64,000 nt of DNA from Candidatus Kerfeldbacteria bacterium (GTDB taxonomy: Bacteria; Patescibacteriota; Patescibacteriia; SBBC01; CAIJZX01). This document shows positions 1,201 to 34,506 of the stretch, piece by piece. The DNA is taken from assembly GCA_963731735.1 (NCBI GenBank), contig CAVSWO010000002.1:628257-692256 (forward strand), given 5' to 3'. Each line of letters opens with the position of its first letter. Within the stretch, counting starts at the first letter, position 1. Position numbers and translations under genes: made by a program. The notes under the pieces are model-generated. The model was not told the DNA's origin and did no database searches. It worked only from the letters and a program-made list of their open reading frames with translations.

Positions 1201-1314
1201 GGATTTTGCTCCCAACATCTCGCCCTGAGCGCCGAAGTGGATTTCACACCTCGGCGCTTACTCTTTTTCACGTTGCGACGAGGGGCACTTTCTGGTACAA
1301 TCACAGCCAAAATC

Positions 1315-1692
1315 ATGACATCAAACGCCGCCGGTCGAACCCTGGGATATATCCTCCGTGAATTGGTGGGTGAGTTACTGTATTGGCCGGTCTGGTGGTA
1401 TACCACGGGCTTGCGGCTGGCCTGGCGGCGGATGCAGTCGCAAGTAATCCGCATGTACGATCGGTTAGGAACCCGGTATCTGTTCTCAAATATGGGTCGG
1501 CCGATGTATGGCGATTACACGCGCAGTGGCCGCGTCATCAGCTTCTTCTTTCGGTTGCTGCTGGTGGGATGGTCGTTGTTGGTTTTGAGTGTCTGGGGGC
1601 TATTTGCGGCTCTGCTCTTTCTCCTCTGGATCGTGATTGTGCCGGGCGTACTGGCGATGTTGGTGCTACAGCTTTTACCAGTCTCCTCATGA
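1315..1692 (+). CDS. small hydrophobic membrane protein (alternative start 1237)
   Basis: The sequence ...FFFRLLLVGWSLLVLSVWGLFAALLFLLWIVIVPGVLAMLVLQLL contains two or three TM helices. Its TGA stop overlaps the ATG of the downstream Clp-like gene in an ATGA arrangement. Confidence 0.5.
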   Translation: MTSNAAGRTLGYILRELVGELLYWPVWWYTTGLRLAWRRMQSQVIRMYDRLGTRYLFSNMGRPMYGDYTRSGRVISFFFRLLLVGWSLLVLSVWGLFAALLFLLWIVIVPGVLAMLVLQLLPVSS

Positions 1693-4403
1693 ATCCACCA
1701 ACCGGCATCGCACTCTGCGCTACGTGCGGCGGACACGGGTATCTCCGATCGCAACGCGAACGGAATCAGCCATGTCCGACCTGCGGAACCCACGGGACGG
1801 CGGTCTGGTGGGCCGGCAAGTGGTGGTCATGGCAGCAACCGCTGACCGCCGGCAGTATTGCCGCCCGACACACAGAACATGTGCTCAAAATCATCGTGTC
1901 GGCTTTTGCGATGGCCCTCCTACTGGGCGGACTGCTCTGGGGCGGGCCGGTATTCTATCGCGCGGCGCTTGACCAACAACTCATTTCGACACTGGTCACG
2001 CACGACGTGCGACTGGCCGCTTGGTGGCTTGGGATCGCGGCCGGTTTGTATGTAACGTACCGACTCGAGCGCGACGCCTTGCTGATGCCGCTGATCCCGG
2101 CCGCTACCGGCGCCACCCAGCCGGCCGGGACACCCTGGGGAGGAACCACGAAACCGGAAGATTTAGCCAGTCTCTTTCCTGAGGAGAGTCACCGGGTGCT
2201 CGAACACGCTTGGCGGTTGGCGCAGGCACGGAAACAGGCACAGGTGCTGCCCTCCCACCTGGTTGAAATTCTTTCAACCCGACCGGATGTCGCCAGCATG
2301 ATTGTTCGGATGGGGCTGCAACCTGAAGTGGTACGTGAAAAATTACGCGCGTCGGAGCCGCCGGCCGCTCCGGGCAGCGCCCAACCGAGTTTAAGTATGG
2401 CCGCCCAACTGATGATTGCCGAAGCGTTTTTGATTGCGGCTCAAGCGCATCACGACCGGATCCGACCGACTACCTTGATGGCCGCCGTGGGATCATTGGA
2501 TGACCCGGCCCGCGATGTCATGTTTGATCTCGGACTCGATCAAATCAAACTCGAGCATGTGTTGGCCTGGTTGATGATTCAAGAAGATCTCCGTACAAAA
2601 GTTCGTCGTTACCAGCGCCAGGCAGCGCTCAAACCGAAAGGTGCCATTGATCGAGGATTTACGGCCGCCGCGACGCCCGTCTTAAGTCACTTTAGCCATG
2701 ACCTGACCATTCGTGCCCGGAACGGCAATCTTCCGTATGTGATCGGGCGTGATGAAGAATTGAAACGAATATTTCGGGTCCTTGAAAGCGGTCACCAAAG
2801 CGTGATGTTACTGGGGCAACCCGGCGTCGGAAAAACCAACGTTTTGTACGCCTTGGCCGAGCGGATGGTAACCGAGGATGTGCCCGAACCACTGCAAGAT
2901 AAACGTTTGGTCAGTCTCTCGGCCGCCGCGCTGGTCTCGGGGGCCGGCAAGGTAGGAGATTTGGAAGAACGGGTGACCACGATTACCCATGAACTGGCGC
3001 GAGCTGGAAACATCGTGCTGGCGATTGAGGATTTCGATCAACTGGTCGGCGTGTCTTCCAGCGGTGGTGGTTTAGACGCGGCTCATATTTTTGCCCATGA
3101 GATTCAGCAAGGCGGTTTGCTGGTGATCGCGACTGCGTCACCGGCGGCCTATCGACGCGTGATTGAGCCGAGTGGAACCGGCAGCGCCTTTCAGTCGATC
3201 GAGATCCCAGAAATGAGTGTGGAGCATGCGATCGTGGCGGTTGAATCTCGGATTGGAGGTTTAGAGGCCCAGCACGCGGTCTTCTTTACGTATGACGCAA
3301 TTGACCACGCGGTCCGGCTCGCCCAACGCTACTTACATGACTCGCCATTACCGGGCAAAGCCCTGGAGATCCTCGGGGAGGCGGCCACCGTCACCCACCG
3401 TGCGCGCGGGAAAAACGCTTTAGTATTGAAAGATGACGTGGACAGTATTGTGAGCGAAGAGTCCAAGGTCAATGTTCGCAGCGTGACCCAGGACGAACAG
3501 ACAAAACTCCTGCATCTGGAAGATGCATTGCATCAGCGGGTGATTGGCCAAGATGAAGCGGTCAATGCGGTGGCGAACGCGCTCCGTCGCGCCCGGGCGG
3601 AAATTCGCGACGCCAAGCGCCCGATTGCCAGCTTCTTGTTCCTCGGTCCGACCGGGGTTGGAAAAACCGAACTGGCTAAAACGGTGGCGGCCGTGTACTT
3701 CGGATCGGAAGACGCGATGGTTCGGATCGATATGTCGGAGTATCAGGAAGTTTCAAGCATTGACCGGTTGATTGGCAATCCGCAGACGGCCGGCGGCGGT
3801 CAATTGACGGATGCCATCCGGGTCAAACCTTTTTCAATCGTCTTGCTCGATGAATTAGAAAAGGCGCATCCGGATATTCTGAACCTGTTCCTGCAGGTGA
3901 TGGACGATGGACGGCTGACAGACGCCGCCGGCCGGACGGTTGATTTTACCAACGCCATTATTATTGCCACTTCAAACGCCGGGACACAGCATATGCAAAA
4001 TCGTTTCCGTGAAGGCATTCAGCTGGAGACGATCAAGAATGAACTCATCAATCAAGAGCTCCAGCGTTACTACCGGCCGGAATTCTTGAACCGCTTTGAC
4101 GCGATCGTGGTCTTTAAACCGCTGAGTCCGATTCAAGTCGTGAAGATCGTTGATCTGATGATGCGCCAGGTAACCAAGTCGCTGGCTGAAAAAGGCATTA
4201 CCTTCAAAGTCGCCCCAGAAGCGATTGCCGAATTAGCCCAACAAGGCTTCGATCCGACGTTTGGCGCCCGACCGCTGCGCCGGTTGGTACAAGAAAAAGT
4301 CGATAACGCGCTGGCGACGTTCTTGTTGCAGGGAAAGCTCGGACGCCGTGATGTGGCGACGCTTGAACCCGGCGGCCAGATCCGAGTTACCAAGGCGCAA
4401 TAA
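1689..4403 (+). CDS. ClpC/ClpB-family double-AAA+ chaperone with N-terminal DnaJ-type CxxCxGxG zinc fingers and predicted TM helices
   Basis: Walker A motifs are LLGQPGVGKTN (NBD1) and FLFLGPTGVGKTELAK (NBD2). Two Clp_N repeats are present (VLEHAWRLAQARKQAQV; AQLMIAEAFLIAAQAH). The N-terminus CATCGGHGYL...CPTCGTHG is followed by hydrophobic segments HVLKIIVSAFAMALLLGGLLWG and LAAWWLGIAAGLYVTY. The track ORF starts at 1383, but that stretch overlaps the upstream gene in another frame, so the start is placed at ATG 1689. Confidence 0.8.
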   Translation: MNPPTGIALCATCGGHGYLRSQRERNQPCPTCGTHGTAVWWAGKWWSWQQPLTAGSIAARHTEHVLKIIVSAFAMALLLGGLLWGGPVFYRAALDQQLISTLVTHDVRLAAWWLGIAAGLYVTYRLERDALLMPLIPAATGATQPAGTPWGGTTKPEDLASLFPEESHRVLEHAWRLAQARKQAQVLPSHLVEILSTRPDVASMIVRMGLQPEVVREKLRASEPPAAPGSAQPSLSMAAQLMIAEAFLIAAQAHHDRIRPTTLMAAVGSLDDPARDVMFDLGLDQIKLEHVLAWLMIQEDLRTKVRRYQRQAALKPKGAIDRGFTAAATPVLSHFSHDLTIRARNGNLPYVIGRDEELKRIFRVLESGHQSVMLLGQPGVGKTNVLYALAERMVTEDVPEPLQDKRLVSLSAAALVSGAGKVGDLEERVTTITHELARAGNIVLAIEDFDQLVGVSSSGGGLDAAHIFAHEIQQGGLLVIATASPAAYRRVIEPSGTGSAFQSIEIPEMSVEHAIVAVESRIGGLEAQHAVFFTYDAIDHAVRLAQRYLHDSPLPGKALEILGEAATVTHRARGKNALVLKDDVDSIVSEESKVNVRSVTQDEQTKLLHLEDALHQRVIGQDEAVNAVANALRRARAEIRDAKRPIASFLFLGPTGVGKTELAKTVAAVYFGSEDAMVRIDMSEYQEVSSIDRLIGNPQTAGGGQLTDAIRVKPFSIVLLDELEKAHPDILNLFLQVMDDGRLTDAAGRTVDFTNAIIIATSNAGTQHMQNRFREGIQLETIKNELINQELQRYYRPEFLNRFDAIVVFKPLSPIQVVKIVDLMMRQVTKSLAEKGITFKVAPEAIAELAQQGFDPTFGARPLRRLVQEKVDNALATFLLQGKLGRRDVATLEPGGQIRVTKAQ

Positions 4404-4407: not shown

Positions 4408-4833
4408 ATGCCGGTCCGGATACCCTCAAGTCCGCTGTTTTCCGTACTCCGAAAGCTTGATCTGCCGGCAAAGAATTATGTGGTCTTTGGCAGCGGCCCG
4501 CTCTGGGTGCGGGGATTACGCGAATCGCACGATTTGGATATCCTGGCCCGTGGTTCCGCCTGGGAGCGGGCCAAACAGGTCGGTCAACTTGGAACAGTCG
4601 TCGGGAGTGACCGCCCGGTGGTGCGAATTCCCGGGATGGCGATTGAAATTTTTGATACCTGGTACCCGGGCGCCTGGGACGAACAGGGGATCATTGACCG
4701 GGCGGAAATGATAGATGGGTTGCCGTTTGCCAGCTTGGCGGATGTCCAAGCCTGGAAAAAGCGGATGGGCCGCCCGAAAGATTTAGCTGACCTCCGTCTG
4801 CTAGCTGAATATGTAACACAGCCCAGCCAATAA
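4408..4833 (+). CDS. minimal nucleotidyltransferase-fold protein
   Basis: The sequence VVFGSGPLWVRGLRESHDLDIL matches the GS-x(9-13)-D-h-D NTase signature. The start is placed at ATG 4408, immediately after the Clp stop. The track ORF 4261..4833 has an implausible N-terminus. Confidence 0.5.
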   Translation: MPVRIPSSPLFSVLRKLDLPAKNYVVFGSGPLWVRGLRESHDLDILARGSAWERAKQVGQLGTVVGSDRPVVRIPGMAIEIFDTWYPGAWDEQGIIDRAEMIDGLPFASLADVQAWKKRMGRPKDLADLRLLAEYVTQPSQ

Positions 4834-4916: not shown

Positions 4917-6278
4917 ATGGCCAAGCTCGAAACGACCAAGATGGACCAGATTGTGAACCTGGCGAAACGCCGAGGTTTTGTTTTTCCGAGCGCGGAGATT
5001 TATGGCGGCCTGGGCGGTTTTTGGGACTGGGGTCCGCTCGGGGTCCTACTCAAGAACAATATCAAACAGGAATTTTGGAAAACATTTGTCCAGCAACGCG
5101 ATGATGTGGTTGGGCTGGATGGTTCAATTATTACCAACCCGAACGTTTGGCAGGCCAGCGGTCATGTCGCCGGATTTGCCGACGAATTAGTCGAGTGCAA
5201 AAAATGCCACCATCGGTTTAAGGCAGACGATGTTGAAGCCAAGTGCCCGGATTGCGGCGGCGATTTTACTCCAGCCCGAAAATTCAACACTATGTTTCGG
5301 ACCTTTGTCGGTCCAGCCGAGGAGAGCGCGAGTACCGCGTATTTGCGTCCCGAAACCGCCCAAAATATTTTTGCGAATTTTGAACTGGTTCGGGAGTCGC
5401 TGCGTAAAAAATTACCGTTTGGAATCGCGCAAATTGGTAAAGCTTTTCGGAATGAAATCACCCCCGGCAACTTCATTTTCCGCTCGCGGGAGTTTGAACA
5501 AATGGAGATTGAGTACTTTGTAAAACCCGGCGATGATGATCAAGTCTTTGATCAATGGGTGCGGGCTTGCCATCAGTGGTTCTTAGACCTCGGGCTTTCG
5601 AAGGACAACCTGCGTTTAGCTCAACAGCCGGTGGCGGAATTAGCGCACTATGCTAAAGCTACCACCGATATCGAATTTGCCTTCCCAATCGAAAAAGGCT
5701 GGGCCGAGCTGATGGGCGTGGCTAATCGCACTGATTATGATTTACGGCAACATGGCCAGCATGCTCGGGCTGATGAAAACGCCTTCGCAACCGCCATCGA
5801 TTCTGAAGGCCGGACAAAAAAAGTCCCGTATGTGATTGAGCCGTCGATGGGCGTTGACCGAGCCGCGCTCGCCTTCATACTTGATGCCTACACAGTCATT
5901 AAAGGGGGACGCTCGACCACAACCGAAAGTATCAAAGAAGCGGAAGTTGTTTTGAAACTCCATCCAAAACTCGCGCCGTACAAAGCGGCGATTTTACCCT
6001 TGTCAAAAAAACCAGCCCTGCAAAAAATTGGGCAAGAAATAGCCAAGACGCTTCGACAGCAATGGTTTATCGATTACGACGAAACTGGGTCGATCGGCAA
6101 ACGCTATCGCCGTCAGGATGAAATCGGGACGCCGCTGTGCATCACGGTCGACTTTGATACGATTGAAGGCACCAAGCGCCCAAAACAAACCGTGACCGTC
6201 CGCAATCGCGATACCATGGCCCAAGCGGCGGTGGCGATTGAAGACTTGCCTGCGTATGTGGCGAAAACTCTGGCCTAG
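4917..6278 (+). CDS. glyQS: glycyl-tRNA synthetase, alpha2 (class II) type
   Basis: The sequence FRNEITPGNFIFRSREFEQMEIEYF is class II motif 2. Length is 453 aa, and the HCKKCHHRF...CPDCGG insertion is typical of GlyRS. Confidence 0.9.
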   Translation: MAKLETTKMDQIVNLAKRRGFVFPSAEIYGGLGGFWDWGPLGVLLKNNIKQEFWKTFVQQRDDVVGLDGSIITNPNVWQASGHVAGFADELVECKKCHHRFKADDVEAKCPDCGGDFTPARKFNTMFRTFVGPAEESASTAYLRPETAQNIFANFELVRESLRKKLPFGIAQIGKAFRNEITPGNFIFRSREFEQMEIEYFVKPGDDDQVFDQWVRACHQWFLDLGLSKDNLRLAQQPVAELAHYAKATTDIEFAFPIEKGWAELMGVANRTDYDLRQHGQHARADENAFATAIDSEGRTKKVPYVIEPSMGVDRAALAFILDAYTVIKGGRSTTTESIKEAEVVLKLHPKLAPYKAAILPLSKKPALQKIGQEIAKTLRQQWFIDYDETGSIGKRYRRQDEIGTPLCITVDFDTIEGTKRPKQTVTVRNRDTMAQAAVAIEDLPAYVAKTLA

Positions 6279-7959
6279 TTTACTGGTGCTGGGTTTGGTG
6301 GTTTTCGCCCGCCCGGTGTTTGCGCAAGCCTGGTCGATACCTGAGTTTCAGGCAGACATCACGATTAACCAAGACGCATCGATTGACGTGGTCGAAGTGA
6401 TTCGAGTTGACTTTGGCACGGCTAAACACGGCATCTACCGAACCATACCTTTTCGCTACACCGTCGGTGACAATTCGACGGTCAGTGTGCCATTGACGAT
6501 TCGCAGCGTGCGGATGGACGGCCGATCAATCAAATATACAGAGCGGCAGAGTGGAAACGATGTGACGTTGAAAATTGGTGATCCCAACACCACCATCACC
6601 GGCGCGCATGTCTATACGATTGATTATACGGCGCAAGCCGCCATCAATTTCTTCAGTGACCACGACGAGCTCTATTGGAACGTGACCGGTAGCGATTGGG
6701 AGGTGCCGATCCAAAGTGTTAGCGCCAGTGTGCATTGGCCGTCCCAGGTATCGGCTGACCAGCAGCGGGTCGGTTGCTATACCGGCGCCATCGGTTCCCG
6801 GGCGCGTGACTGCCTGGCCCAAGCTGAAACTGGTCAAGCGACGTTTTCGGCGCAAGATTTTCTGACGGTTGTTGTCGGTGCGCCGCCGGGGACGGTGACC
6901 AAACCAGCCAATTACGATACCCTTCGGACGTCGGCCGGTCAATCCGAATTTACCCGACGGTTTCTTTCGATGCCAATCATGAGCTTGAACCTCTTGATTC
7001 TCCTGGGATCGATGGTTGGCATAGTGGTTGCCTGGCGTCGCTACGGTCGCGATCCACGCAGTCGTGGAACGGTGATCGCACAATACGAACCTCCGGCCGG
7101 GCTGCGACCAGGTGAAGTCGGTGTGGTATTTAATGAACGGGCAAACCAGCGCGATCTGTCGGCCACAATCATTGATTTGGCCGTTCGCGGCTATCTTGAA
7201 ATTACGGAAATTGAAAAGAAGCACGCGCTCGGTCTTGGCCACTCAACCGACTACAAACTCAATCTGAAAAAATCCATTAATGATAGCGCTTTGCAACCCT
7301 ATGAACAGCAAATGCTCAAGGGCCTGTTTGGAACAGCCAAGCAGCAGGTCTTATCCGATCGCAAAGGCAAGATGCATACCGAGGTGAAACAAGCCCAAAC
7401 AGGTTTGTATCAACGGGTGGTTAGGCTGGGACTCTTTGACCACAACCCGCAACGCACGCGCTGGACTTTCGCGGGGGTGGGCATTGCCTTACTGTTTTCG
7501 GGTTTTTGGATTGTTCCATCAGGCATTGTGGCGGTACCAGTCATGGGACTGGTTTTCCTGATCGCCGCGCCGTTTATGCCGAAGCGCACGAAAGCCGGGG
7601 TTGACGCATATTGGCAGGCCCGTGGTTTTAAACTGTTTTTAGAAAAGGCGGAGAAGTATCGCCTCAAGTGGCAAGAAAAAGAACACATCTTCGAGCAATA
7701 CTTACCCTACGCCATGGTTTTTGGAGTGGCCGATAAATGGAGCAAAGCCTTCAAGGATCTGCAGCAGGCGCCGCCGGACTGGTATCATGGGGCAGCCGGC
7801 GGTCAATTCAACACCCTTTTGCTGTGGTCAGCCTTGAGTAATTTTACTTCGGTTTCGGCCGCCAGCTTCGCGCCGCCGGCCGCCAGCGGCAGTTCCGGTT
7901 TTGGCGGCGGTGGATTCTCGGGCGGGGGATTCGGTGGGGGCGGCGGCGGATCTTGGTAA
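6238..7959 (+). CDS. DUF2207-like membrane protein with a glycine-rich C-terminus
   Basis: It has an N-terminal signal, a large extracytoplasmic domain, TM helices and the C-terminal sequence SGSSGFGGGGFSGGGFGGGGGGSW. An alternative start lies at 6256. Confidence 0.65.
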   Translation: MKTCLRMWRKLWPSLLVLGLVVFARPVFAQAWSIPEFQADITINQDASIDVVEVIRVDFGTAKHGIYRTIPFRYTVGDNSTVSVPLTIRSVRMDGRSIKYTERQSGNDVTLKIGDPNTTITGAHVYTIDYTAQAAINFFSDHDELYWNVTGSDWEVPIQSVSASVHWPSQVSADQQRVGCYTGAIGSRARDCLAQAETGQATFSAQDFLTVVVGAPPGTVTKPANYDTLRTSAGQSEFTRRFLSMPIMSLNLLILLGSMVGIVVAWRRYGRDPRSRGTVIAQYEPPAGLRPGEVGVVFNERANQRDLSATIIDLAVRGYLEITEIEKKHALGLGHSTDYKLNLKKSINDSALQPYEQQMLKGLFGTAKQQVLSDRKGKMHTEVKQAQTGLYQRVVRLGLFDHNPQRTRWTFAGVGIALLFSGFWIVPSGIVAVPVMGLVFLIAAPFMPKRTKAGVDAYWQARGFKLFLEKAEKYRLKWQEKEHIFEQYLPYAMVFGVADKWSKAFKDLQQAPPDWYHGAAGGQFNTLLLWSALSNFTSVSAASFAPPAASGSSGFGGGGFSGGGFGGGGGGSW

Positions 7960-8056
7960 GCCGTTAGGTTCGGACAGACATATTCCAAAGTGCCCGCTCC
8001 ATTCCTCTCCAGCCGGATTTTGTGCTATAGTAGAAGCGAATAAAAAACCAACAACT

Positions 8057-8734
8057 ATGCCCGAACTGCTCGATCCCGAAACATCGTTGCCGGAAAAAAA
8101 GCGAAAATTTACGCCGGCCCAGATTATCATGCTGCTCTTGTATCCGGTGATCTTTATCGTTGGCTTAAGTACCGGCCTGGTGATCGGATTGAAGCAGGGG
8201 AAACAGGTTCCAAATGTGAATACCGCCAATACGCAAGCGCCCGTGACGATCGTCCCGAACGCTAACACCAATGTCAATACCAGTCCGACCACCAACGCGA
8301 ATGTCAATGTCAGCAGCGTGATTACGAACACCAATAACGCGCTCAGCGGGGGCGGATATTTAGAACTGGATGCCGCGACCCAGGCCAGCCTCAACCAGGC
8401 GGCTGAAAAAGATAAAAATACTTTGGTTGATCAGTCGGCCTCGCTGCCGGATATCGTGCGTCAACAGGATTTGATCACTATCAAATATAATTTGCAGGCC
8501 TATTACGAGGTTAACCAGTCCTATCCGTCAACCAAGGACAAACAAATTCGCCTCGATCGCGGCGCCTCCGACGTCCTGTACCAGGCGCTCAAGACGTTTT
8601 ACGGCGGTAGTTATAATGAACCGATTGACCCTGAACATCCAACCTATTATTACGGTTATACTTCGGATGGAAAAAGCTTTGAATTGTCCGCCTATCTGAC
8701 GAGCAAATCGAAACCGTTTGTCTTAACCAACTAG
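8057..8734 (+). CDS. membrane-anchored protein with a pilin-like C-terminal domain
   Basis: The sequence MPELLDPE...FTPAQIIMLLLYPVIFIVGL is a TM segment, followed by an N/T-rich linker. The C-terminal ...YYYGYTSDGKSFELSAYL resembles type IV pilin or pseudopilin globular domains. The track ORF 7901..8734 was trimmed to the first convincing ATG. Confidence 0.45.
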   Translation: MPELLDPETSLPEKKRKFTPAQIIMLLLYPVIFIVGLSTGLVIGLKQGKQVPNVNTANTQAPVTIVPNANTNVNTSPTTNANVNVSSVITNTNNALSGGGYLELDAATQASLNQAAEKDKNTLVDQSASLPDIVRQQDLITIKYNLQAYYEVNQSYPSTKDKQIRLDRGASDVLYQALKTFYGGSYNEPIDPEHPTYYYGYTSDGKSFELSAYLTSKSKPFVLTN

Positions 8735-8735: not shown

Positions 8736-10004
8736 ATGAAACTCGAAACCCTTCCCAACGGCCTGCGCTGCGTGACCGTCCCGCTCCATGATACGAAAGC
8801 TGTGACGGTGTTTGTATTTGCCAAGGTCGGTTCCCGCTACGAGACCCGATCAACTAACGGTATCTCACACTTTATTGAACACCTGATGTTCAAGGGCACG
8901 AAGAAACGCCCGACCACCATGGCAATCTCACGCTTGCTCGATGGAGTGGGCGCCAACTATAATGCGTTCACCTCAAAAGACTGGACCGGATATTATGTCA
9001 AAATCAATCACCAACACGCAACCTTGGCGCTGGATATCGTCAGCGATATGTTGCAGCACTCGCTCTTTAAACCGGCCGAGATCGAGCGCGAACGCGGGGT
9101 CATCATTGAGGAGATCAACATGTACGAAGATAATCCGTTGATGTCGATTGAGGACATGTTTGAATCAGCCGTGTATGGTGATCATCATCCGCTTGGGTGG
9201 AACATCGCGGGTCCACGGTCGGTCATCCGAAAAGTATCCCGTCCGACAATTTTGCGCTATCGCGATCAATACTATCACGCTAAAAATATGTTGGCGGTGG
9301 TGGTTGGGAAAATCCCGGACGGATTCGGTAAAGACATTCACCGAATGTTCGGGACCGTTCGATCGCGTTCGAAAACTCCCCATGCCAAACCGTACAAACC
9401 GCATGCCCGCCGCCATCCGATTCATCTGCGCTGGAAAGAGTTGGAACAGGTGCAGTTGGCGGTTGGCACCAAAGCCTTTAAGTATACGGACCGGCGGATG
9501 CCGGCACTCAGTCTGCTGGCGGCCTTGCTGGGCGGTAATATGAGCTCACGCCTGTTTATTCAAGTTCGGGAACGTCGCGGTCTGGCGTATTCAGTTCACG
9601 CGGCAGTTAATCCGTATGAGGATGTCGGAAGTTTTATGGTCCAAGCCGGGCTGGAGAAAAAACGCGTCCTGGATGCCCTGCGGGTGATTCTGGCTGAACT
9701 TCATAAAGTCAAATCCCAATCGATCGGTCCGGCCGAACTCAAGCGCACCAAAGAATTTATACGCGGCAAAATGGTGCTTGACCTGGAAGATTCCGATTCG
9801 ATCGCGTCGTGGTATGGGCGGCAAGCCATGTTTTTTGGAAAAATCCAATCACCCGAGCAAGCCTTGGCCAAAATTGATGCGGTCACGGCCGGTGATATCC
9901 GTCAGGTGGCCAACCAACTCTTTCGACCGGCGGCGATGCGTCTGGCCGTGATTGGTCCGTTCAAAGACTCGGCACCGTTCGCGTCAGTCCTGCGAACGGT
10001 CTAG
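8736..10004 (+). CDS. M16 family zinc peptidase
   Basis: The sequence ISHFIEHLMFKGT carries the inverted zincin motif HxxEH. Length is 422 aa. Confidence 0.85.
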   Translation: MKLETLPNGLRCVTVPLHDTKAVTVFVFAKVGSRYETRSTNGISHFIEHLMFKGTKKRPTTMAISRLLDGVGANYNAFTSKDWTGYYVKINHQHATLALDIVSDMLQHSLFKPAEIERERGVIIEEINMYEDNPLMSIEDMFESAVYGDHHPLGWNIAGPRSVIRKVSRPTILRYRDQYYHAKNMLAVVVGKIPDGFGKDIHRMFGTVRSRSKTPHAKPYKPHARRHPIHLRWKELEQVQLAVGTKAFKYTDRRMPALSLLAALLGGNMSSRLFIQVRERRGLAYSVHAAVNPYEDVGSFMVQAGLEKKRVLDALRVILAELHKVKSQSIGPAELKRTKEFIRGKMVLDLEDSDSIASWYGRQAMFFGKIQSPEQALAKIDAVTAGDIRQVANQLFRPAAMRLAVIGPFKDSAPFASVLRTV

Positions 10005-27086: not shown

Positions 27087-30008
27087 ATGCCAGGGGAGAT
27101 TCCGGATAAAGTAAATCGCGAGCAGCAGGCCGCCATTCGCCATGGCCGGGGGCCGCTCTTGATCGTGGCCGGCGCTGGAACCGGGAAAACCACGGTCGTG
27201 ACCGAACGGATTGCGCACCTGATCATGAACGAACAGGTTCCGTCGGACAATATCCTGGCCCTGACCTTTACCGATAAAGCGGCCGGTGAAATGCAGGACC
27301 GAGTTGAGCGGATTTTACCGTTCGGGTATGTCGACCTGTGGGTCATGACCTTTCACAGCTTGGGCCAGCGGCTGCTGAAAGAGCACGCGCTTGATATCGG
27401 GCTGTCCAATGATTTTAAACTCTTATCCCAAACCGACCAGTGGCTGCTGATTCGGGAACATTTGGAAGAATTCGATTTGGAGTACTATCGGCCGCTCGGC
27501 AATCCGACGAAATTTATTTCCGCCCTGGTCCGGCACTTTTCACGCTTGAAAGACGAAGATATTTCACCGGAGGAATATTTAAAGTATGCGAAAACTTTGT
27601 CCAAGGGCAAAACGAAGAAAGCAGCCGAAGACCAGGCCGAAGCCGATCGGATAATGGAAGTCGCGAAGGCCTACCAAAAGTATAATCAGTTGTTACTCGA
27701 CAACAACGCCCTGGATTTTGGCGATCTCATTCTGTATACCTTGCGGCTGCTGCGGGAACGGCCGGCCATCCTGAAAAAGTATCAGCAGCAATTCCAGTAT
27801 ATCCTGGTCGACGAATTTCAGGACACGAACTGGGCGCAGTTTGCATTGATTAAACGACTGGCGGCGCCGCGCAACAATCTGACGGTGGTCGGTGACGATG
27901 ACCAATCAATCTACAAATTCCGCGGCGCTTCGGTTTCAAACATTATAGAATTCAAGAAAGATTTTCCGGAGGCCGAAGTGGTGGTATTAACCAAGAACTA
28001 TCGGACCCAGCAGAAGATCTTGGACCTGGCCTATGCGTTTATCCAGCAGAATAACCCCGATCGCCTGGAAGCCAAGCAGGATTTGTTTGGCGGTCTGTCG
28101 GTCGTCAAGAAACTGACGGCCCAGCGCCCCGGTTCGGGGGAAACCGGCTGGTTGCATCTGGACACCCAGGAAGCCGAGGCTCGGGCGGTGGCCGATAAAA
28201 TCGAAGCTCTGCGGCAAAACGATCCGAAGTTAGGCTGGGACGCCTTCGCGGTTCTGGTTCGCGCCAATGATCATGCCCAATTGTATCTGCAGGAGTTCGA
28301 GCGGCGCGGCCTACCGCATGTATTCCTGGCCGCCCGCGGCTTATTTACGAAACCGTTGGTGCTCGATCTCTTGGCGTATCTGCGTCTGCTCGATAACTAT
28401 CACGAAAGTTCGGCCCTGGCCCGCGTGCTGGCCATGCCAATCTGGGCGATTGATCACGGCGACGTGGTGGAACTATCCTACCAAGCCAAAAAGAAAACCC
28501 GATCGCTGTTTGAGCAGCTCCAGCATGATGATGTTTCGGTATCCGATTCGACGCGCCAAGGCATCCAACGACTGAAGCAACTGGTAGCCGAACACACTAA
28601 AGACGCCAATAGCAAAAAGGCCGGTGAAGTGGTGCTGCAGTTCCTGAATGATTCCGGCTATCTCAAAGCCATGACCAAGGAGGAAACAGCCGAGTCGCAG
28701 CAGCAGACCGCACTGTTGCGGCAATTTTTCAAAGTGATTGAAACCTTTCAGCAGGGCGAAACCCACGCCTCGGTCAAAGGACTGTTGCGATACATTGACC
28801 ATGTGATGGAATCCGGCGACGCCGGCGGCTTGGAACATGATGTCGAGGCCGGCCCTGAGACCATCAAAATCATGACCGTTCACTCGGCCAAGGGCCTGGA
28901 GTTTCCCTACGTTTTTATCGGCAACATGGTCGAGGATCGCTTTCCCGGTCGCGACCGCCACGACCCGATTCCGGTCCCGGACGCCCTGGTCCGCGAAGTG
29001 TTGCCGTCCGGCGACGCCCATCTGCAGGAAGAACGTCGTTTAATGTACGTGGCGATCACCCGGGCCCGGAACGGCGTCTGGTTAACCGCGGCCGAAGACT
29101 ATGGCGGCCAGCGCCGGAAAAAGCCCTCCAAGTTCGTCTATGAACTGGGGTTATTGCAGCCACCGGTCAAGGCCGAAAAGAAGCCGCCGCTGCCGGCTCG
29201 TGAATTCAAACCCACCCCGGTCCAAAAAAAAGAAGCGGCCGCCTACCTGGCCAAGGAAAATCAGTTTAGTTTTACGAAACTCTCAACCTACAACGATTGC
29301 CCCTGGAAATACCGCTACGCCTTCGTGCTACAAGTCCCGAAGCGGGGGAGTCACGCGCTGTCGTACGGATCGTCGGTCCACAAAACCCTGCAGAATTTCT
29401 TCGCCCTTTGGAAGACACGGGAGCCGGCCGGCAAGTCCGTCAGTTTGGACGAGCTGCTGACCTTTTACGATCGCTGCTTCATCGACGAATGGTACTCGAG
29501 CAAGGCCCAGAAAAAAGAATATTACGACAAAGGCAAAGCCGCCTTAACGACCTGGTACAGCCGCGTCAGCAAACAGCCGCCGGAGGTCTTGCGACTGGAG
29601 CAGGTCTTTAATCTGAAGGTCGATGAATTCGTGATCAACGGCGCGATCGATCGGATCGACAAAATCGGCGGCTCGGACGAAAATCCGGAGGTCAAAATTG
29701 TCGATTATAAAACCGGCAAAGTTAAAGAGAAATTCGCCAAGGACGATAAGTACCAGCTCTTGATTTACGCCCTGGCCGTGCAGGATCCGAATATTCTGCC
29801 GGGCGAGGTCAAGCAACTGGAATACTACTTTATCGACGAAAACGTTTCAAAAACCTACCAGCCGACCGAACAGGACCGGACGGATACCCTGGATTGGATT
29901 CGCCAGACGGTCGGTAAAATCCAATCGGGTGATTTTCATCCGACACCCAGTAAATTTATCTGCGACTACTGCGACTTTAAAGAGATCTGCGAATTCCGAG
30001 CAGTGTAA
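27087..30008 (+). CDS. UvrD/PcrA-type SF1 helicase fused to a C-terminal PD-(D/E)xK nuclease with a Cas4/AddB-like 4-Cys Fe-S cluster
   Basis: Helicase motifs are I (AGAGTGKTT), II (LVDEFQDT), III (VVGDDDQSIY) and VI (TVHSAKGLEFPYVFI). The nuclease region reads IDRIDK...VKIVDYKTGK. The Cys pattern is CPWKY...CDYCDFKEIC. Confidence 0.85.
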   Translation: MPGEIPDKVNREQQAAIRHGRGPLLIVAGAGTGKTTVVTERIAHLIMNEQVPSDNILALTFTDKAAGEMQDRVERILPFGYVDLWVMTFHSLGQRLLKEHALDIGLSNDFKLLSQTDQWLLIREHLEEFDLEYYRPLGNPTKFISALVRHFSRLKDEDISPEEYLKYAKTLSKGKTKKAAEDQAEADRIMEVAKAYQKYNQLLLDNNALDFGDLILYTLRLLRERPAILKKYQQQFQYILVDEFQDTNWAQFALIKRLAAPRNNLTVVGDDDQSIYKFRGASVSNIIEFKKDFPEAEVVVLTKNYRTQQKILDLAYAFIQQNNPDRLEAKQDLFGGLSVVKKLTAQRPGSGETGWLHLDTQEAEARAVADKIEALRQNDPKLGWDAFAVLVRANDHAQLYLQEFERRGLPHVFLAARGLFTKPLVLDLLAYLRLLDNYHESSALARVLAMPIWAIDHGDVVELSYQAKKKTRSLFEQLQHDDVSVSDSTRQGIQRLKQLVAEHTKDANSKKAGEVVLQFLNDSGYLKAMTKEETAESQQQTALLRQFFKVIETFQQGETHASVKGLLRYIDHVMESGDAGGLEHDVEAGPETIKIMTVHSAKGLEFPYVFIGNMVEDRFPGRDRHDPIPVPDALVREVLPSGDAHLQEERRLMYVAITRARNGVWLTAAEDYGGQRRKKPSKFVYELGLLQPPVKAEKKPPLPAREFKPTPVQKKEAAAYLAKENQFSFTKLSTYNDCPWKYRYAFVLQVPKRGSHALSYGSSVHKTLQNFFALWKTREPAGKSVSLDELLTFYDRCFIDEWYSSKAQKKEYYDKGKAALTTWYSRVSKQPPEVLRLEQVFNLKVDEFVINGAIDRIDKIGGSDENPEVKIVDYKTGKVKEKFAKDDKYQLLIYALAVQDPNILPGEVKQLEYYFIDENVSKTYQPTEQDRTDTLDWIRQTVGKIQSGDFHPTPSKFICDYCDFKEICEFRAV

Positions 30009-30056
30009 ATGAAACGCAAGAAACCGCGGCGGTTACGCGCTGTTATAGGATGTAAA

Positions 30057-30710
30057 TTATTTTCGCCTCTTCGTCGAACGCTTTGTGTACTTTGCGGGTG
30101 ATACAGTACATACAAAGCTCATCCAATTATTGCCGCCTTCCGATTTCTGGAACTGCTTGATAACTCGGAAACCATGTTCCCGCAGAATGTTCCTAAATTC
30201 ATTTTTGGAATAAAAGGCAAAAAATCTCGTTACACCGCCGTATTTTTCTTGCGTGATTACTTGTTCATCAACATTACTTTTTTCTTTCATCGAAACCACA
30301 AACATGCCTTGCGGTGTTAACAGACGGCGAATAGAACGAAGGACCTTCGGCAGCCGCCTTTTTGGAATATGGAGCAAGGTAGCAATAGACCACACTGCAT
30401 CAAACTGGTGAGCCGGAAAGCGGAGATCATAAAAGCTCATTTTCTTGAATGTGCCCTTTGGATTGAGTTTTTGTGCTAACGCTAAGAGTCCTTTTGAAGC
30501 GTCGGTACCGATGTAGTCAAAACCGGCCTGAAGTAGATCATGTGCGTCTCGACCGCCCCCACACCCGATTTCGAGGACGCGGTTGCCGTGAATTTGGCGA
30601 TGAAGTTCATCCAGTTCATCTTTCCAAAAATGAAACATCCGATTCGTTGTAGCATACTTCGGCGCAATTTTGTCGTAGGCTTCGATTGTTTGTTTTGTGC
30701 GTAAGTCCAT
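30057..30710 (-). CDS. class I SAM-dependent methyltransferase (Methyltransf_11-like)
   Basis: Motif I reads VLEIGCGGGRDAHDL. It is the first gene of the AT-rich island and is convergent with the helicase gene. Confidence 0.75.
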   Translation of the reverse strand: MDLRTKQTIEAYDKIAPKYATTNRMFHFWKDELDELHRQIHGNRVLEIGCGGGRDAHDLLQAGFDYIGTDASKGLLALAQKLNPKGTFKKMSFYDLRFPAHQFDAVWSIATLLHIPKRRLPKVLRSIRRLLTPQGMFVVSMKEKSNVDEQVITQEKYGGVTRFFAFYSKNEFRNILREHGFRVIKQFQKSEGGNNWMSFVCTVSPAKYTKRSTKRRK

Positions 30711-30921
30711 GAGCGAAAATAATTTATTTCCGATAACGTTTGCGCGTACACGATTTTACGTAGTATATCGGGTACGCGCTGTTGTACGGAGTCGGGGTTC
30801 CGAACATTGACAAGTGTCAGGTTCTATGTAAAAGTCTAACACACTTTGTACATTCCCTGGTAGCTTAGATTCAACAGGGCGTTGTTTCTAGGTAGCCATC
30901 GACTCATTAGGAGACATAGCC

Positions 30922-31251
30922 ATGAGTAGTGGTAGTGTCGCCCGACAGGAGCGCGAGTTTCTGGCGTGTGTGATCCGTCATCTCCCAGAGCTTTTTCCAA
31001 ATGAACGGCAGGCGTGGATTGAAAACCAGGATCTTCTGTCCGAAAGGTTGGAGCTAGCCCTGGACATGGTAAGCCCCAGGATCAAACTCCTTGAACGTCT
31101 AAATGAAGGAGTGACGCGCGTCACAAAAAAAGGTCATGCCGCCAAGATAAGACTCTTTCTGTTCAATCTTGGCTCTGAAGACCAAGTGACTGTCGATAAG
31201 CTTGCACGAGCAATCGTTCAAGCTGTTGACCCAGCATCACTCAAAGAGTAG
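30922..31251 (+). CDS. hypothetical 109-aa protein
   Basis: The gene has a TTGACA-16-TAAAAG promoter-like element, an AGGAGA RBS 7 nt before the ATG, and a strong terminator. The product is not recognised. Confidence 0.55.
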   Translation: MSSGSVARQEREFLACVIRHLPELFPNERQAWIENQDLLSERLELALDMVSPRIKLLERLNEGVTRVTKKGHAAKIRLFLFNLGSEDQVTVDKLARAIVQAVDPASLKE

Positions 31252-31265
31252 TGGCACAGATAAGT

Positions 31266-31309
31266 AACGGACTTCGAGATTACATCAACGAGTCCGTTTA
31301 ATTTTTTTA
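31266..31309 (+). terminator. intrinsic terminator
   Basis: The hairpin AACGGACT-(16 nt)-AGTCCGTT is followed by TAATTTTTTT. Confidence 0.7.
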
Positions 31310-31394
31310 CTAGGAACCCCGATTTCGTACAACGTTTGCGTCTCATACGACCGTCTGCCGTAGCAATAGCGAAGGCAGATGTCGTATAGACGCT

Positions 31395-31418
31395 GTTAGG
31401 AGATGTAACAATAGGGTC
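31395..31418. repeat. left copy of the 24-bp inverted repeat GTTAGGAGATGTAACAATAGGGTC
   Basis: Matches the reverse complement of 32072..32095 at 22 of 24 positions. It abuts the stop codon of the kinase gene. Confidence 0.8.
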
Positions 31419-32055
31419 ACTTGGTTAGTAGTTTAATCGCTTTCTTCAGCTGTCCGCTAAAATCGTTGTCCATGTTGAGAACCTTGAATTTGTACTTCCG
31501 CGCTTCTTTATTAAAAAACTGTCCATAGTAACTGACCATTTGTGCGATTTTGTACAAAGTCTTTTTGTTTAAAGTCTTGCGAAGTATCCAATCGTTTGGA
31601 GTTGAGCTTTTCTTTGTATCATGCACAAACTTTTCAATATCAGACTTCACAAGAAAAAGAACGCGGAAATGTTTACCGCCATATTTTTTAATAAGTCGAG
31701 CTGCAAGTTGTGGCGTTATGTGGTAGCCCTCTAGAATGTAGTCATTCCCATCTTTGATTTCAGATATGGCAAACATATCTAAAGCATCATAACTTGCTAC
31801 AGCTTGCTTCATGTAATTTTTGGCAACCCGATGTGGAGTGTTGCGTGAATATGTTTCATCATTTGTTTTACCTTTTTTGGAACTGTGAGGATACAATCTC
31901 GCAAGCGCTTGCTTGGAGACATACTTCGAAACATATTCACGAACTACAACTTGCAGCGTGTCAGAAGCAACCCACTGGATTCCGAGCCCTTTGGACAGTT
32001 TTTTGGCGAGTGTGGTCTTACCACATTTTGGCGGACCACCGATTAAATAAATCAT
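31417..32055 (-). CDS. P-loop NTPase/kinase-fold protein, possibly a nucleoside/nucleotide kinase
   Basis: The Walker A motif is IYLIGGPPKCGKTTLAKKL. Length is 212 aa. The gene is AT-rich. Confidence 0.65.
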   Translation of the reverse strand: MIYLIGGPPKCGKTTLAKKLSKGLGIQWVASDTLQVVVREYVSKYVSKQALARLYPHSSKKGKTNDETYSRNTPHRVAKNYMKQAVASYDALDMFAISEIKDGNDYILEGYHITPQLAARLIKKYGGKHFRVLFLVKSDIEKFVHDTKKSSTPNDWILRKTLNKKTLYKIAQMVSYYGQFFNKEARKYKFKVLNMDNDFSGQLKKAIKLLTK

Positions 32056-32071
32056 AGTTGTGATTCAGCAA

Positions 32072-32095
32072 GACCCTATTGTTATTTCTCCTAAC
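32072..32095. repeat. right copy of the 24-bp inverted repeat (GACCCTATTGTTATTTCTCCTAAC)
   Basis: Lies 17 nt upstream of the kinase start codon. It is the reverse complement of the 31395..31418 repeat. Confidence 0.8.
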
Positions 32096-32265
32096 GTCAG
32101 GGATATACGAAGTTTTGCGACGAAGGAGTAAAATTTGGGTGAGGGGCGAGCCGAGCCCCGAACCGTATGTCCCTTGTTAAGTGACCCGAACGGAATGAAA
32201 TGGAGTGAGAGCGCAGCGGGGCTTGAGTTGAGGATTTGTCCTTCATTATAAAAAAGGGCAAAAAA

Positions 32266-33084
32266 TTATTTTTCAGCAACCCAAAATAATCTGTGACTAC
32301 TTAATTTTATACCTTCCTTGTTAAGTTTTTTATCAACCTCTTCAAGATGTGCCTTGTCTTTCATTTTATCAAAATCTGGAATTATTGGGGCTCTTTCAAG
32401 AATTTCTATAACATCGTTAATTGACGAATACACCTGATGAAATTTAAAGTATTTTGATTCAACGAGTTTCATTCCAGATTGTGCCAATAATTTTTTTACT
32501 AATTCAAGTTTTGTTTTCTGATTAGGATAATTTTGCCCTCTTCTAAAAATTTTTTTGAGTTCGATTTTATCCTTCTCGCCAATAGTTTCTTCAATCATCA
32601 GCCCTCCTTTTTTTAAAACGCGAAAACTTTCTCTAATAAAATCAATGTTGGCAGAAAGGGGTCCTCTTGAGCTGAAAATAATATCAAAATGGTCATCTTC
32701 AAAAGGCAAATTTTTTCCATCTGCAACCTTGAAAATAACATTTTTAGCTTCAACAGATTTTTTAAGTTTATCTGCGGATTTTATGTAATCCTCAAAAGGA
32801 TCAATGCCAACAATTTCTTTAAAAAATGGGGAAAGTTTGAGTGTTAGTTCGCCAGACCCACATCCCAAATCCAATATTTTAAAATTTTTGTTGGCGAATT
32901 TTTTAAGAAACTCAAAAAAATTTGGTTTTTCTCCAGCGATTAATTTACCTTGTCCATGAAGCTCGTATTTTTTAAATTTCGTTGAACTTTTCTTATAAAA
33001 AATATCGTGATGATCTTTCATGTTTGTCTTGTTATTAAATAATTTTTTGCCCCTATATATTTTTGGACAAATCCTCAATTTCAC
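32266..33084 (-). CDS. class I SAM-dependent methyltransferase, very AT-rich
   Basis: Motif I is ILDLGCGSGELTL, and the post-I acidic residue and FEDDHFDIIFS are present. The start may be the internal MKDHH at ~33021. Confidence 0.7.
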   Translation of the reverse strand: MKLRICPKIYRGKKLFNNKTNMKDHHDIFYKKSSTKFKKYELHGQGKLIAGEKPNFFEFLKKFANKNFKILDLGCGSGELTLKLSPFFKEIVGIDPFEDYIKSADKLKKSVEAKNVIFKVADGKNLPFEDDHFDIIFSSRGPLSANIDFIRESFRVLKKGGLMIEETIGEKDKIELKKIFRRGQNYPNQKTKLELVKKLLAQSGMKLVESKYFKFHQVYSSINDVIEILERAPIIPDFDKMKDKAHLEEVDKKLNKEGIKLSSHRLFWVAEK

Positions 33085-33280
33085 TTAACGATTGCGCGTA
33101 GGCGAAGTTCGTCGGTGATACAATCGTACCATCACCGGCGAACTTAGGCGAGCGGTTTCTAGGGGATGGCCTTCGGGCGGCCACAGAAACCCGAGCCGCC
33201 TACGCGCTGTTGTACGATGATTTGCCGACCGCCGCATATGTAAAAGAAAAGCGTGGTTGTCTCCATGTTACCCGACATTC

Positions 33281-33335
33281 TTGACACGAACTAATCCTTA
33301 TGCTATCCTGCTTTGTCAATTCATGGTGAATTGAC
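33281..33335 (+). promoter_or_regulatory. sigma70-like promoter (TTGACA-17-TATCCT) followed by a perfect 9-bp palindrome GTCAATTCA-TGG-TGAATTGAC, a putative operator
   Basis: Read directly from the sequence. The palindrome lies at the predicted transcription start. A GGAGG RBS lies 7 nt before ATG 33358. Confidence 0.55.
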
Positions 33336-33357
33336 TGCTCCTTTCGGAGGTAGAGCG

Positions 33358-33660
33358 ATGCCAGACATTCGCGTGTCCATTCCTCATCGGCTCGGCAAGC
33401 CCGAAGCGCTCAAGCGAGTTCGCACGCTCCTGACGAACGTCAAGCGTGACCATGGTGACCAGGTCAGCAACCTCGAGGAGCGCTGGCATGACAACGGTGC
33501 CAGGTTCAGCTTCAGTACCATGGGCTTCGATGTCTCGGGGCAGCTGACCGTGAGTGACCGAGAAGTCACTGTCACGGGCAAGCTCCCCTGGCTGGCGGGC
33601 ATGTTCAAGGGTCAGATCGAGGACACGATCCGCGATCAGGCCAGCGAGCTTCTCGTCTAG
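33358..33660 (+). CDS. small protein resembling the 'putative polyhydroxyalkanoic acid system protein' family (PHA_gran_rgn-like)
   Basis: The sequence MPDIRVSIPHRLGKPEALKRV...GQLTVSDREVTVTGKLPWLAGMFKGQIEDTIRD fits the ~95-aa family pattern. The track start of 33313 was replaced by the RBS-supported ATG at 33358. Confidence 0.5.
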   Translation: MPDIRVSIPHRLGKPEALKRVRTLLTNVKRDHGDQVSNLEERWHDNGARFSFSTMGFDVSGQLTVSDREVTVTGKLPWLAGMFKGQIEDTIRDQASELLV

Positions 33661-33691
33661 GGCGCTCCAAGGAATCATCTCCGATAACATG

Positions 33692-33730
33692 GGTCCGGGA
33701 GTAGCGATACTCTCGGACCTAGCTTTTCTT
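33692..33730 (+). terminator. intrinsic terminator
   Basis: A 12-bp stem GGTCCGGGAGTA-GCGA-TACTCTCGGACC is followed by TAGCTTTTCTT. Confidence 0.65.
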
Positions 33731-33899
33731 ACAACATAGGGAGGCAAATTTTCGTACAACGTTTCGGCGTAGACGATAGTGGCGACAGCGCGGAGGCGGT
33801 ACACTTTTCTTGACCGCCGGAGCGACGAGCCATTTCGCGTATACACCAGTGCTTTATATGACGTTTCAGTCTGTCTAATCATACTACCAGCCGGTGTCT

Positions 33900-34343: not shown

Positions 34344-34465
34344 AAGTTTATTCTCTAACAGACAGAAGACGAAATGCCATATAACTCGTTATTATACGAA
34401 CTCTGTTCGTATCATAGCCCCTCGAGCCGGGTTTGGCCAGAAAAATACTGAATATATTATGCCAT

Positions 34466-34497
34466 AAAGAAAAACCCCACGGACGAAACGCGCGGGG
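34466..34497 (-). terminator. intrinsic terminator downstream of tRNA-Arg
   Basis: On the minus strand, the hairpin CCCCGCGCG-tttcgtcc-GTGGGG is followed by TTTTTCTTT. Confidence 0.55.
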
Positions 34498-34506
34498 TTG
34501 GATGTG

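Follow-up and report, generated by a model that had tools for sequence, protein, structure and literature searches.

Clp/Hsp100 proteins are textbook soluble threading motors. What, then, is the task of a relative that appears to be fixed in the membrane and to have one working ring? The question is raised by a 64,000-nucleotide (nt) stretch of a Candidatus Kerfeldbacteria bacterium genome (assembly GCA_963731735.1, contig CAVSWO010000002.1, positions 628,257 to 692,256 of the forward strand; the whole stretch is hereafter "the window"). Here, an intact open reading frame (ORF) on the + strand, from an ATG at 1689 to a stop codon at 4401-4403, encodes a 904-residue ATPase, and its start overlaps the end of a gene for a small putative membrane protein. 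We propose that the ATPase is a membrane-anchored Clp/Hsp100 variant that functions independently of both ClpP and DnaK, relies on its second AAA+ module alone, and acts with the small protein as its partner; in this form the assignment is very likely correct. The full reading, in which the window copy also acts on its clients without threading them, has in our estimate a probability of about 0.6 relative to the alternatives discussed below. The ATPase probably does a job that no studied Clp protein does.

Domain architecture and distribution of the ATPase family

The ATPase begins with a four-cysteine zinc ribbon and a hairpin of hydrophobic helices; a divergent Clp_N domain follows, and then two AAA+ modules (D1 and D2). 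A model built with AlphaFold2 (AF2) on the family alignment is confident, with a predicted local distance difference test (pLDDT) score of 86.4, and features beta strands over residues 7-47 (the zinc ribbon and a tryptophan-rich hairpin), long helices at residues 54-94 and 107-131, a helical N domain, and both AAA+ modules. Its best fold matches in the PDB by Foldseek are ClpC, ClpB, and ClpC1, with E values of about 1e-57 to 1e-46 against ClpC and ClpB. Pfam recognizes AAA_2 (2.7e-55), ClpB_D2-small (6.6e-22), AAA_lid_9 (2.1e-8), and AAA, and two tandem AAA+ modules with AAA_lid_9 and D2-small are the arrangement of class-I Clp/Hsp100 proteins. Among NCBIfam models, the best match is ClpB TIGR03346 (567.5 bits; cut-off 1232.1); ClpA TIGR02639 scores 498.6 bits (cut-off 993.15), collinear over residues 166-885, and NF008263 scores 376.7 bits (cut-off 1350). 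No curated NCBIfam equivalog threshold is reached. Overall, the preliminary description of this gene as encoding a zinc-ribbon-capped, membrane-tethered, double-AAA+ member of Clp/Hsp100 with a short inter-ring linker is supported.

The same domain fusion defines a conserved family in Patescibacteria. A full-length search recovered 66 full-length homologues, namely one identical protein and 65 further relatives of approximately 900-925 residues, at 40-65% identity and 95-100% coverage; they derive from Kerfeldbacteria, Parcubacteria, and 'Patescibacteria group' assemblies. The next matches in rank are already ordinary ClpB, at approximately 34% coverage. When 1.84 billion cluster representatives were searched with a profile of the first 135 residues, 160 clusters matched at E<=1e-10, many of them approximately 900-935 residues long. 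Finally, a scan of GTDB species genomes, keyed on alignment with the family-specific motif QDKRLVSL, placed the family in at least 167 species genomes of Kerfeld-, Kuenen-, Falkow-, and Uhrbacteria as well as Parcubacteria. The motif counts reported here are drawn from two sets, the 66 full-length homologues and 80 GTDB species loci.

Because homologues of 40-65% identity can be aligned from residue 1 onward, through the four cysteines, the tryptophan-rich motif, and the hydrophobic hairpin, the N-terminal start is real; a true start downstream of the hydrophobic segments, which the preliminary description had allowed for, is not what the alignments indicate. Many of the genomes that harbor the gene pair (e.g., loci L014, L017, L023, and L024) are titled 'uncultured Gammaproteobacteria bacterium' (TPA_asm), and one (L046) is titled Vicinamibacterales. 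These titles are probably placeholder or mis-binned names rather than occurrences outside Patescibacteria.

The zinc ribbon consists of two knuckles, CATCGGHG (residues 10-17) and CPTCGTHG (residues 29-36), with beta strands across residues 7-29 in the AF2 model. All 27 diverse members compared have C10, C13, C29, and C32, and the ribbon occurs in 65/80 species loci. Both of the CxxCxGxG motifs first noted are present, but the second is inexact in the window copy, with a T at position 6 where most homologues are canonical. The likeness to a DnaJ-type zinc finger is confined to the CxxCxGxG-like knuckles: the DnaJ Cys-rich domain has four of them, whereas the ATPase has two, forming one four-cysteine zinc site, and its match to Pfam DnaJ_CXXCXGXG (PF00684) scores 15.5-16.6 bits relative to a cut-off of 32.7. 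The knuckle motif is also shared with Anti-TRAP. Pfam matches of the ATPase to the two are sub-threshold (E 0.01-0.02), and Anti-TRAP (PF15777) is among the precomputed Pfam assignments of two homologues. The 15/80 orthologues without both CxxC knuckles (L022, L023, L045, L059, L060, L062, L063, L067, L071, L074, L075, L082, L084, L085, and L090) still keep the hydrophobic hairpin; in L023, L060, and L084, Met replaces the D2 pore-loop Tyr (PPGM).

The ribbon is followed by a tryptophan-rich juxtamembrane motif, WWAGKWWSWQQP, and then by the two helices that were originally predicted to be transmembrane (TM1 and TM2). TM1 is strongly hydrophobic, with a Kyte-Doolittle (KD) value of 2.36 in the window copy and above 1.6 in 80/81 orthologues. 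TM2 is marginal here, though hydrophobic in most orthologues (KD above 1.2 in 72/81 and above 1.6 in 49/81), and is best regarded as a probable second span. The mean number of Lys and Arg residues in orthologues is 3.6 before TM1, 1.4 in the loop, and 4.6 after TM2, a distribution that fits an N-in/C-in hairpin, with the ribbon on the cytoplasmic side together with the ATPase body. We propose that the ribbon, the tryptophan-rich hairpin, and the two-helix hydrophobic hairpin together hold the ATPase at the membrane, with both ends of the chain predicted to be cytoplasmic.

The Clp_N double repeat of class-I Clp/Hsp100 proteins is recovered by profile-profile comparison: the family profile aligns with that of the ClpB N domain over 133 columns in hhalign (probability 99.2%, E 5.5e-20) at 14% identity. 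Likewise, precomputed Pfam PF02861 is recorded for most homologues, but a single-sequence hmmscan of the window ATPase against Pfam does not list Clp_N. The repeats are therefore present but divergent rather than canonical, as they had been called. A family-specific linker, ALKPKGAIDRGFTAAATPVL, joins the N domain to D1. It has no equivalent in ClpA or ClpB, is the sole low-confidence part of the AF2 model (pLDDT 52-56), and features a K, P, T, and P that are invariant in the family; it may be a binding motif.

A degenerate first ring and a complete second ring

The two AAA+ modules were compared, motif by motif, with a reference set of E. coli ClpA and ClpB and of ClpB/ClpC-type proteins. Both modules anticipated from the sequence are there, but D1 is catalytically degenerate in all 66 homologues and all 80 GTDB loci. 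Its Walker B is never DE in either set (66/66 and 80/80), with variants that include EN, KD, DN, and DH; the tandem RR of the Arg fingers gives way to other residues in 66/66 homologues; the pore-loop aromatic or Tyr is kept only in 1/66 homologues and 2/80 loci; and even Walker A K[TS] is canonical in only 52/80 loci. Judged from these motifs, D1 is a pseudo-ATPase in every member examined.

D2 is of the ClpB type and catalytically complete. Across the family, Walker A KT is present in 76/76 members and Walker B DE in all, and the sensor-1 N, the Arg finger, and the sensor-2 motif GARPLRR are conserved. Its best counterpart is D2 of T. thermophilus ClpB, to which it aligns collinearly at 326 bits. 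The pore loop is variable. In the window copy it reads RLIGNPQTAGGGQL, aligned as RLIGNPQ----TAGGGQL, and the canonical Tyr is deleted. A G[YFW] is missing from the loop in 27/66 homologues and 45/75 GTDB loci, the window copy included, and GAPPGY is kept in 39/66 homologues. The Tyr was lost separately in three lineages or more, by deletions and substitutions that differ from clade to clade. As such, the window ATPase has neither the competent D1 nor the aromatic pore loops in both rings that are expected of a class-I Clp protein.

Features that couple Clp/Hsp100 proteins to other machines are likewise missing. The distance between the two Walker A motifs is 277 residues, compared with 281 in E. 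coli ClpA, 399 in ClpB, and 330 in a ClpC-type protein, and approximately 120 ClpB residues, the M-domain, face a gap in the alignment; the short D1-D2 linker without a long M-domain is thereby confirmed. The ClpP-docking helix-loop-helix (IGF/IGL/LGF/VGF after sensor-1), which the preliminary description had named as a feature to look for, is absent from D2. The segment is of ClpB-type length and aligns without gaps to ClpB D2, and the ATPase is missing the insertion present at this site in E. coli ClpA (SIGL) and in the ClpC-type protein (SLGF). Nor is the ClpP partner sought alongside it usual in the neighbourhood: there is no clpP within the 64-kb window, and the gene was found in only 1/80 GTDB loci and approximately 4 kb upstream of the ATPase gene in two Parcubacteria loci. 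The designation "ClpC/ClpB-like" therefore holds for membership of the Clp/Hsp100 family but not for its implied couplings, as the protein has neither the ClpP loop nor the M-domain for coupling to DnaK.

Could the ATPase nonetheless be a ClpB-type disaggregase that is localized to the membrane and dissolves aggregates there? ClpB is its best NCBIfam match, its D2 is nearest to that of T. thermophilus ClpB, and, like ClpB, it is without a ClpP loop. The score is, however, far under the ClpB cut-off. The ATPase has no M-domain through which to couple to DnaK as ClpB does, its D1 is catalytically dead, and the window copy has the Tyr in neither pore loop, whereas ClpB requires both rings and both pore loops. 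We consider a disaggregase highly improbable.

We give still less credence to a decaying Clp relic that has no specific function in these reduced genomes, or to an N-terminal extension that is an annotation artefact. The progressive decay of the D1 motifs, Walker A among them, the variability of the D2 pore loops, the zinc ribbon missing in 15/80 members, and the absence of D2 from one lineage (described below) could be taken as signs of such decay. Yet the ORF is intact at approximately 900 residues in at least 167 species, the D2 catalytic residues are invariant, the four cysteines are invariant where present, TM1 is conserved, an adjoining partner gene is conserved, and the members can be aligned from residue 1 onward. 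Moreover, since Patescibacteria genomes are streamlined, retention of the ATPase would imply selection.

Processive unfolding by Clp/Hsp100 proteins depends critically on aromatic pore loops. Because neither pore loop of the window copy contains an aromatic residue, as in approximately half the family, and because pore-loop loss recurs while the D2 catalytic residues are invariant, we favor a conformational, non-processive action over classical threading for this copy. The proposed ATPase would assemble as a hexamer whose N-domain/D1 face is pressed on the cytoplasmic side of the membrane. D1 would serve as a nucleotide-binding or structural assembly ring, and ATP hydrolysis in D2 would power the remodelling or release of a membrane-associated client that is recognized by the N domain, the zinc ribbon, and the partner protein. 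It would do so without a protease and without DnaK.

Torsins offer the closest functional analogue for such a non-threading mode. They are Clp/Hsp100-related, associate with the membrane via an N-terminal hydrophobic segment, are without aromatic pore loops, and depend on membrane-protein cofactors (LAP1/LULL1) and a degenerate AAA+ scaffold (PMC5425593). The window copy shares with them the absence of aromatic pore loops and a predicted membrane association, and it has a conserved membrane partner on which it may depend. The analogy is partial. Torsin is a single ring of the eukaryotic endoplasmic reticulum lumen, whereas the degenerate AAA+ module of the ATPase is fused in cis as D1 and its partner is not AAA-like.

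The principal alternative mode is that of a threading unfoldase, similar to FtsH or Msp1, that pulls membrane or secreted proteins from the bilayer through its pore for quality control, possibly with hand-over to a protease. A role in extraction or quality control was the first interpretation of this gene, and membrane or secreted clients are plausible from the geometry: the N-terminal anchor would put the substrate-entry (N/D1) face on the membrane, as in FtsH. D2 is catalytically complete, and the relatives that keep its GY pore loop could thread. It is the threading itself that is doubtful, as the D2 pore-loop GY is deleted in the window copy and the Tyr was lost in several lineages; in addition, the D1 pore Tyr is missing in 65/66 members, and the ATPase features neither an IGF/LGF ClpP loop nor a protease domain. 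For the window copy we regard threading as possible but rather unlikely.

Four points weigh against a membrane-anchored, non-threading ATPase. First, the case for membrane insertion is built on hydropathy, charge bias, and conservation. Second, TM2 of the window copy is marginal, with a KD value of 1.32 and a summed value of +6.5 on the Hessa scale. Third, the canonical D2 GY pore loop is kept in the majority of relatives (39/66); threading may be the ancestral and still common mode, and the window copy may grip its substrate otherwise. Finally, Torsin is without an Arg finger of its own, which the ATPase retains in D2, so the analogy is limited in this respect too.

The partner protein and the genomic context

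The gene that overlaps the start of the ATPase gene encodes a protein of 125 residues with an N-terminal helical part and a single C-terminal hydrophobic stretch of approximately 42-48 residues, which has room for one or two spans. The AF2 model (pLDDT 94) comprises two long helices and draws the hydrophobic stretch as a single long helix; the polytopic topology initially ascribed to this protein is thus not established. Its characteristic motifs are FPVWWYxxGL and PMxGDYSRxGRxISFFxR. Identity among relatives is 29-58%, and all 620 homologues are approximately 120-130 residues long, annotated as 'hypothetical', and devoid of Pfam domains. The partner belongs to no Pfam, NCBIfam, or PADLOC family, and its model has no fold match in the PDB.

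The ATGA overlap between the two genes is as first described, with the TGA of the small ORF inside the ATGA at 1689-1692, and the two ORFs look like a bicistronic unit. The pairing extends well beyond the window genome. A partner gene lies directly upstream on the same strand in 72/80 GTDB loci, or 72/76 of those with enough upstream DNA; three of the eight loci without it end at a contig edge. It is the sole neighbour kept throughout the orthologous loci. No natural fusion of partner and ATPase was found among 269 proteins, and the N-terminal extension of P0034 is unrelated.

All other neighbours are housekeeping or envelope genes with clade-specific distributions. A CLIPPER-domain protein is encoded near the ATPase gene in 29/80 loci, glycyl-tRNA synthetase (GlyRS) in 23/80, L21 in 21/80, TGT in 17/80, yidC (after rpmH-rnpA-yidD) in 12/80, and clpP, as above, in one; Glycos_transf_4 follows directly downstream in 20/80. 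The associations with YidC, GlyRS, L21, the CLIPPER protein, TGT, and Glycos_transf_4 were examined and rejected as universal, as each is confined to particular clades. A reading as an anti-phage defence system was likewise rejected on the basis of the housekeeping neighbours and of PADLOC, which returned only partial, generic D2 matches to ClpB-like components (PDC-M37B, DolB) and no match for the partner protein.

Glycos_transf_4 is a MraY/WecA-type polyprenyl-phosphate sugar-phosphate transferase, and its gene starts 0-500 nt past the Clp stop on the same strand in loci such as L017, L018, L062, L069, and L090. In one genome the two are joined in a 1231-residue fusion of ATPase and transferase (P0217; L094, 4001-7696). 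The gene is absent from the 64-kb window. The position of the ATPase gene before this polytopic transferase, the single fusion, and its position after yidD-yidC in other clades would suit a threading unfoldase that acts on membrane proteins, but none of these associations extends across the family. A more speculative and, in our view, doubtful extension of the non-threading reading is a new AAA+ machine in the form of a membrane-embedded Hsp100 hexamer with a dead D1, in which the D2 cycle, relayed via the N domain, zinc ribbon, TM hairpins, and partner, would assemble, gate, or dismantle an envelope-biogenesis complex, with one around the Glycos_transf_4 transferase as a candidate. Such a machine would be a Patescibacteria-specific functional counterpart of Torsin plus cofactor and possibly essential.

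The N-terminal profile also finds a distinct group of 583-631-residue proteins at 22-25% identity (P0195, P0200, P0202, P0207, P0209, P0212, P0230, P0232, and P0257-P0259). Besides the zinc ribbon and TM hairpin, they possess Clp_N and a P-loop domain that is degenerate, and their chain stops at the D1/D2 junction in a conserved tail, VPYTKILK. We read this group, from its domain content, as a lineage that lost D2. Glycos_transf_4 follows in two of the three loci read and L21 as well in one, which is the gene order downstream of the full-length form in L094; signal peptidase I rather than the small partner precedes the gene in two of these three loci. The lineage suggests that the membrane, N-domain, and D1 part can persist without the motor. 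It also counts against the threading alternative, for this sister lineage lost D2 entirely yet keeps the anchor, N domain, and D1.

Coordinates of the features described here are listed in Table 1, together with a candidate promoter and a weak terminator-like hairpin. Sigma-70-like consensus matches in the region number 4, relative to 2.1 expected, and terminator-like hairpins are no more numerous than in shuffled sequence.

Table 1. Features of the ATPase locus (window coordinates, unless a locus is given) and genes of the D2-less lineage.
Feature	Position	Strand	Remarks
Candidate sigma-70-like promoter	1273..1301	+	TTGCGA-17-TACAAT, extended -10 TG; consensus match; 14 nt upstream of the small gene
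Small partner gene	1315..1692	+	125 residues; N-terminal helical part, then C-terminal hydrophobic stretch
Membrane-anchored Clp/Hsp100-like ATPase gene (predicted)	1689..4403	+	904 residues; start overlaps partner's stop (ATGA)
Four-Cys zinc ribbon	1716..1796	+	residues 10-36; two knuckles
Trp-rich juxtamembrane motif WWAGKWWSWQQP	1806..1841	+	residues 40-51; predicted beta hairpin
TM helix 1 (predicted)	1881..1958	+	residues 65-90; AF2 helix 54-94
Hydrophobic helix 2, probable second span	2007..2066	+	residues 107-126; AF2 helix 107-131
Divergent Clp_N double repeat	2169..2567	+	residues 161-293
Family-specific linker ALKPKGAIDRGFTAAATPVL	2625..2684	+	residues 313-332; N domain to D1; predicted disordered
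D1 AAA+ module, predicted pseudo-ATPase	2694..3488	+	Walker A GQPGVGKT intact
D1 pore loop	2937-2972	+	GKVG in place of KYRG (K for Tyr)
D1 Walker B	3012-3038	+	IED in place of DE
D1 Arg fingers	3174-3197	+	RR replaced by SA
D2 AAA+ module and D2-small, ClpB type	3489..4400	+	catalytically complete; all catalytic motifs kept
D2 Walker A	3645-3668		
D2 pore loop RLIGNPQTAGGGQLT	3765..3809	+	4-residue deletion removes the canonical GYVG Tyr
D2 Walker B	3837-3866		DE
D2 sensor-1	3966-3983		
D2 Arg finger	4074-4100		
D2 sensor-2	4263-4283		GARPLRR
Weak terminator-like hairpin	4417..4434	+	just past the ATPase stop
D2-less gene, locus L091	401-2221		
D2-less gene, locus L092	4808-6619		
D2-less gene, locus L093	780-2675		

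Downstream of the ATPase gene, the window encodes GlyRS (4917-6278), a DUF2207 membrane protein with a Gly-rich tail (6238-7959), an ORF without a Pfam match (7901-8734), and an M16 peptidase (8736-10004); Kerfeldbacteria loci L001 and L004 share the order from GlyRS to M16. Farther along, a region at approximately 30000-34600 is a low-GC (guanine plus cytosine) island, with a GC fraction of 0.43-0.44 compared with approximately 0.55 elsewhere. It contains two S-adenosylmethionine (SAM)-dependent methyltransferases (30057-30710 and 32266-33084, both on the - strand), a small P-loop protein (31417-32055, - strand), and proteins without Pfam matches, and is closed by a tRNA gene (34507-34578, - strand). 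The island may be horizontally acquired. Immediately before it, a 973-residue UvrD-type helicase fused to a PD-(D/E)XK nuclease (AddA/AddB-like) is encoded at 27087-30008 (+ strand).

Relation to known AAA+ systems and implications for Patescibacteria

Relative to ClpB, the ATPase has in common Clp_N, two AAA+ modules, D2-small, a collinear and catalytically complete D2, and the absence of a ClpP loop. It differs in the missing M-domain, the degenerate D1, and the missing pore Tyr, and adds the N-terminal zinc ribbon, the TM hairpin, and a presumably obligate small membrane partner. ClpA is alike in its D1-D2 spacing, the absence of an M-domain, and a single collinear alignment; unlike the ATPase, it features an IGL ClpP loop, an active D1, and a pore Tyr, and is soluble. 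No clpS-like gene lies beside the ATPase gene. ClpC structures are the best whole-chain matches in the PDB by both sequence and fold. ClpE and ClpX, which are ClpP partners, bear an N-terminal four-Cys zinc-binding domain and, likened here by description, provide a precedent for an N-terminal zinc module on a Clp ATPase. In contrast to ClpC, ClpE, and ClpX, the ATPase is without an LGF/VGF loop or a short M-domain, and its knuckles are CxxCxGxG-like and followed by TM helices. In FtsH and Msp1, an N-terminal TM anchor holds the AAA+ ring at the membrane on its cytoplasmic side, as predicted for the ATPase, but these proteins belong to another AAA+ clade and have a single ring with aromatic pore loops, and FtsH carries a fused protease.

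Each component of the ATPase is therefore known, including Clp_N, the AAA+ modules, and a zinc ribbon as in ClpE and ClpX; it is their combination that appears undescribed. To judge from the available genomes, a TM hairpin, a dead D1, no M-domain or ClpP loop, an optional pore Tyr, and a presumably obligate partner occur together in what appears to be a Patescibacteria-restricted family. No curated family in NCBIfam or Pfam captures the whole architecture, and we found nothing on this ATPase family in the literature on Patescibacteria Clp/AAA proteins and membrane-anchored Hsp100. Source annotations label its members 'AAA family ATPase' or ClpC, labels that mislead in that they imply ClpP-dependent proteolysis.

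A membrane-integral lineage with an inactive first ring, no coupling to a protease or DnaK, a dispensable pore Tyr, and an obligate partner would widen the known mechanisms of Clp/Hsp100 proteins. Its natural variants, with and without the D2 Tyr, with and without the zinc ribbon, and one lineage without D2, are ready comparisons for the roles of pore loops and of the second ring. Finally, Patescibacteria have minimal genomes and are largely uncultivated. A two-gene unit that is conserved in this lineage, specific to it, and flanked by genes for housekeeping and the envelope may serve a core function in their unusual cell envelope or episymbiotic lifestyle.

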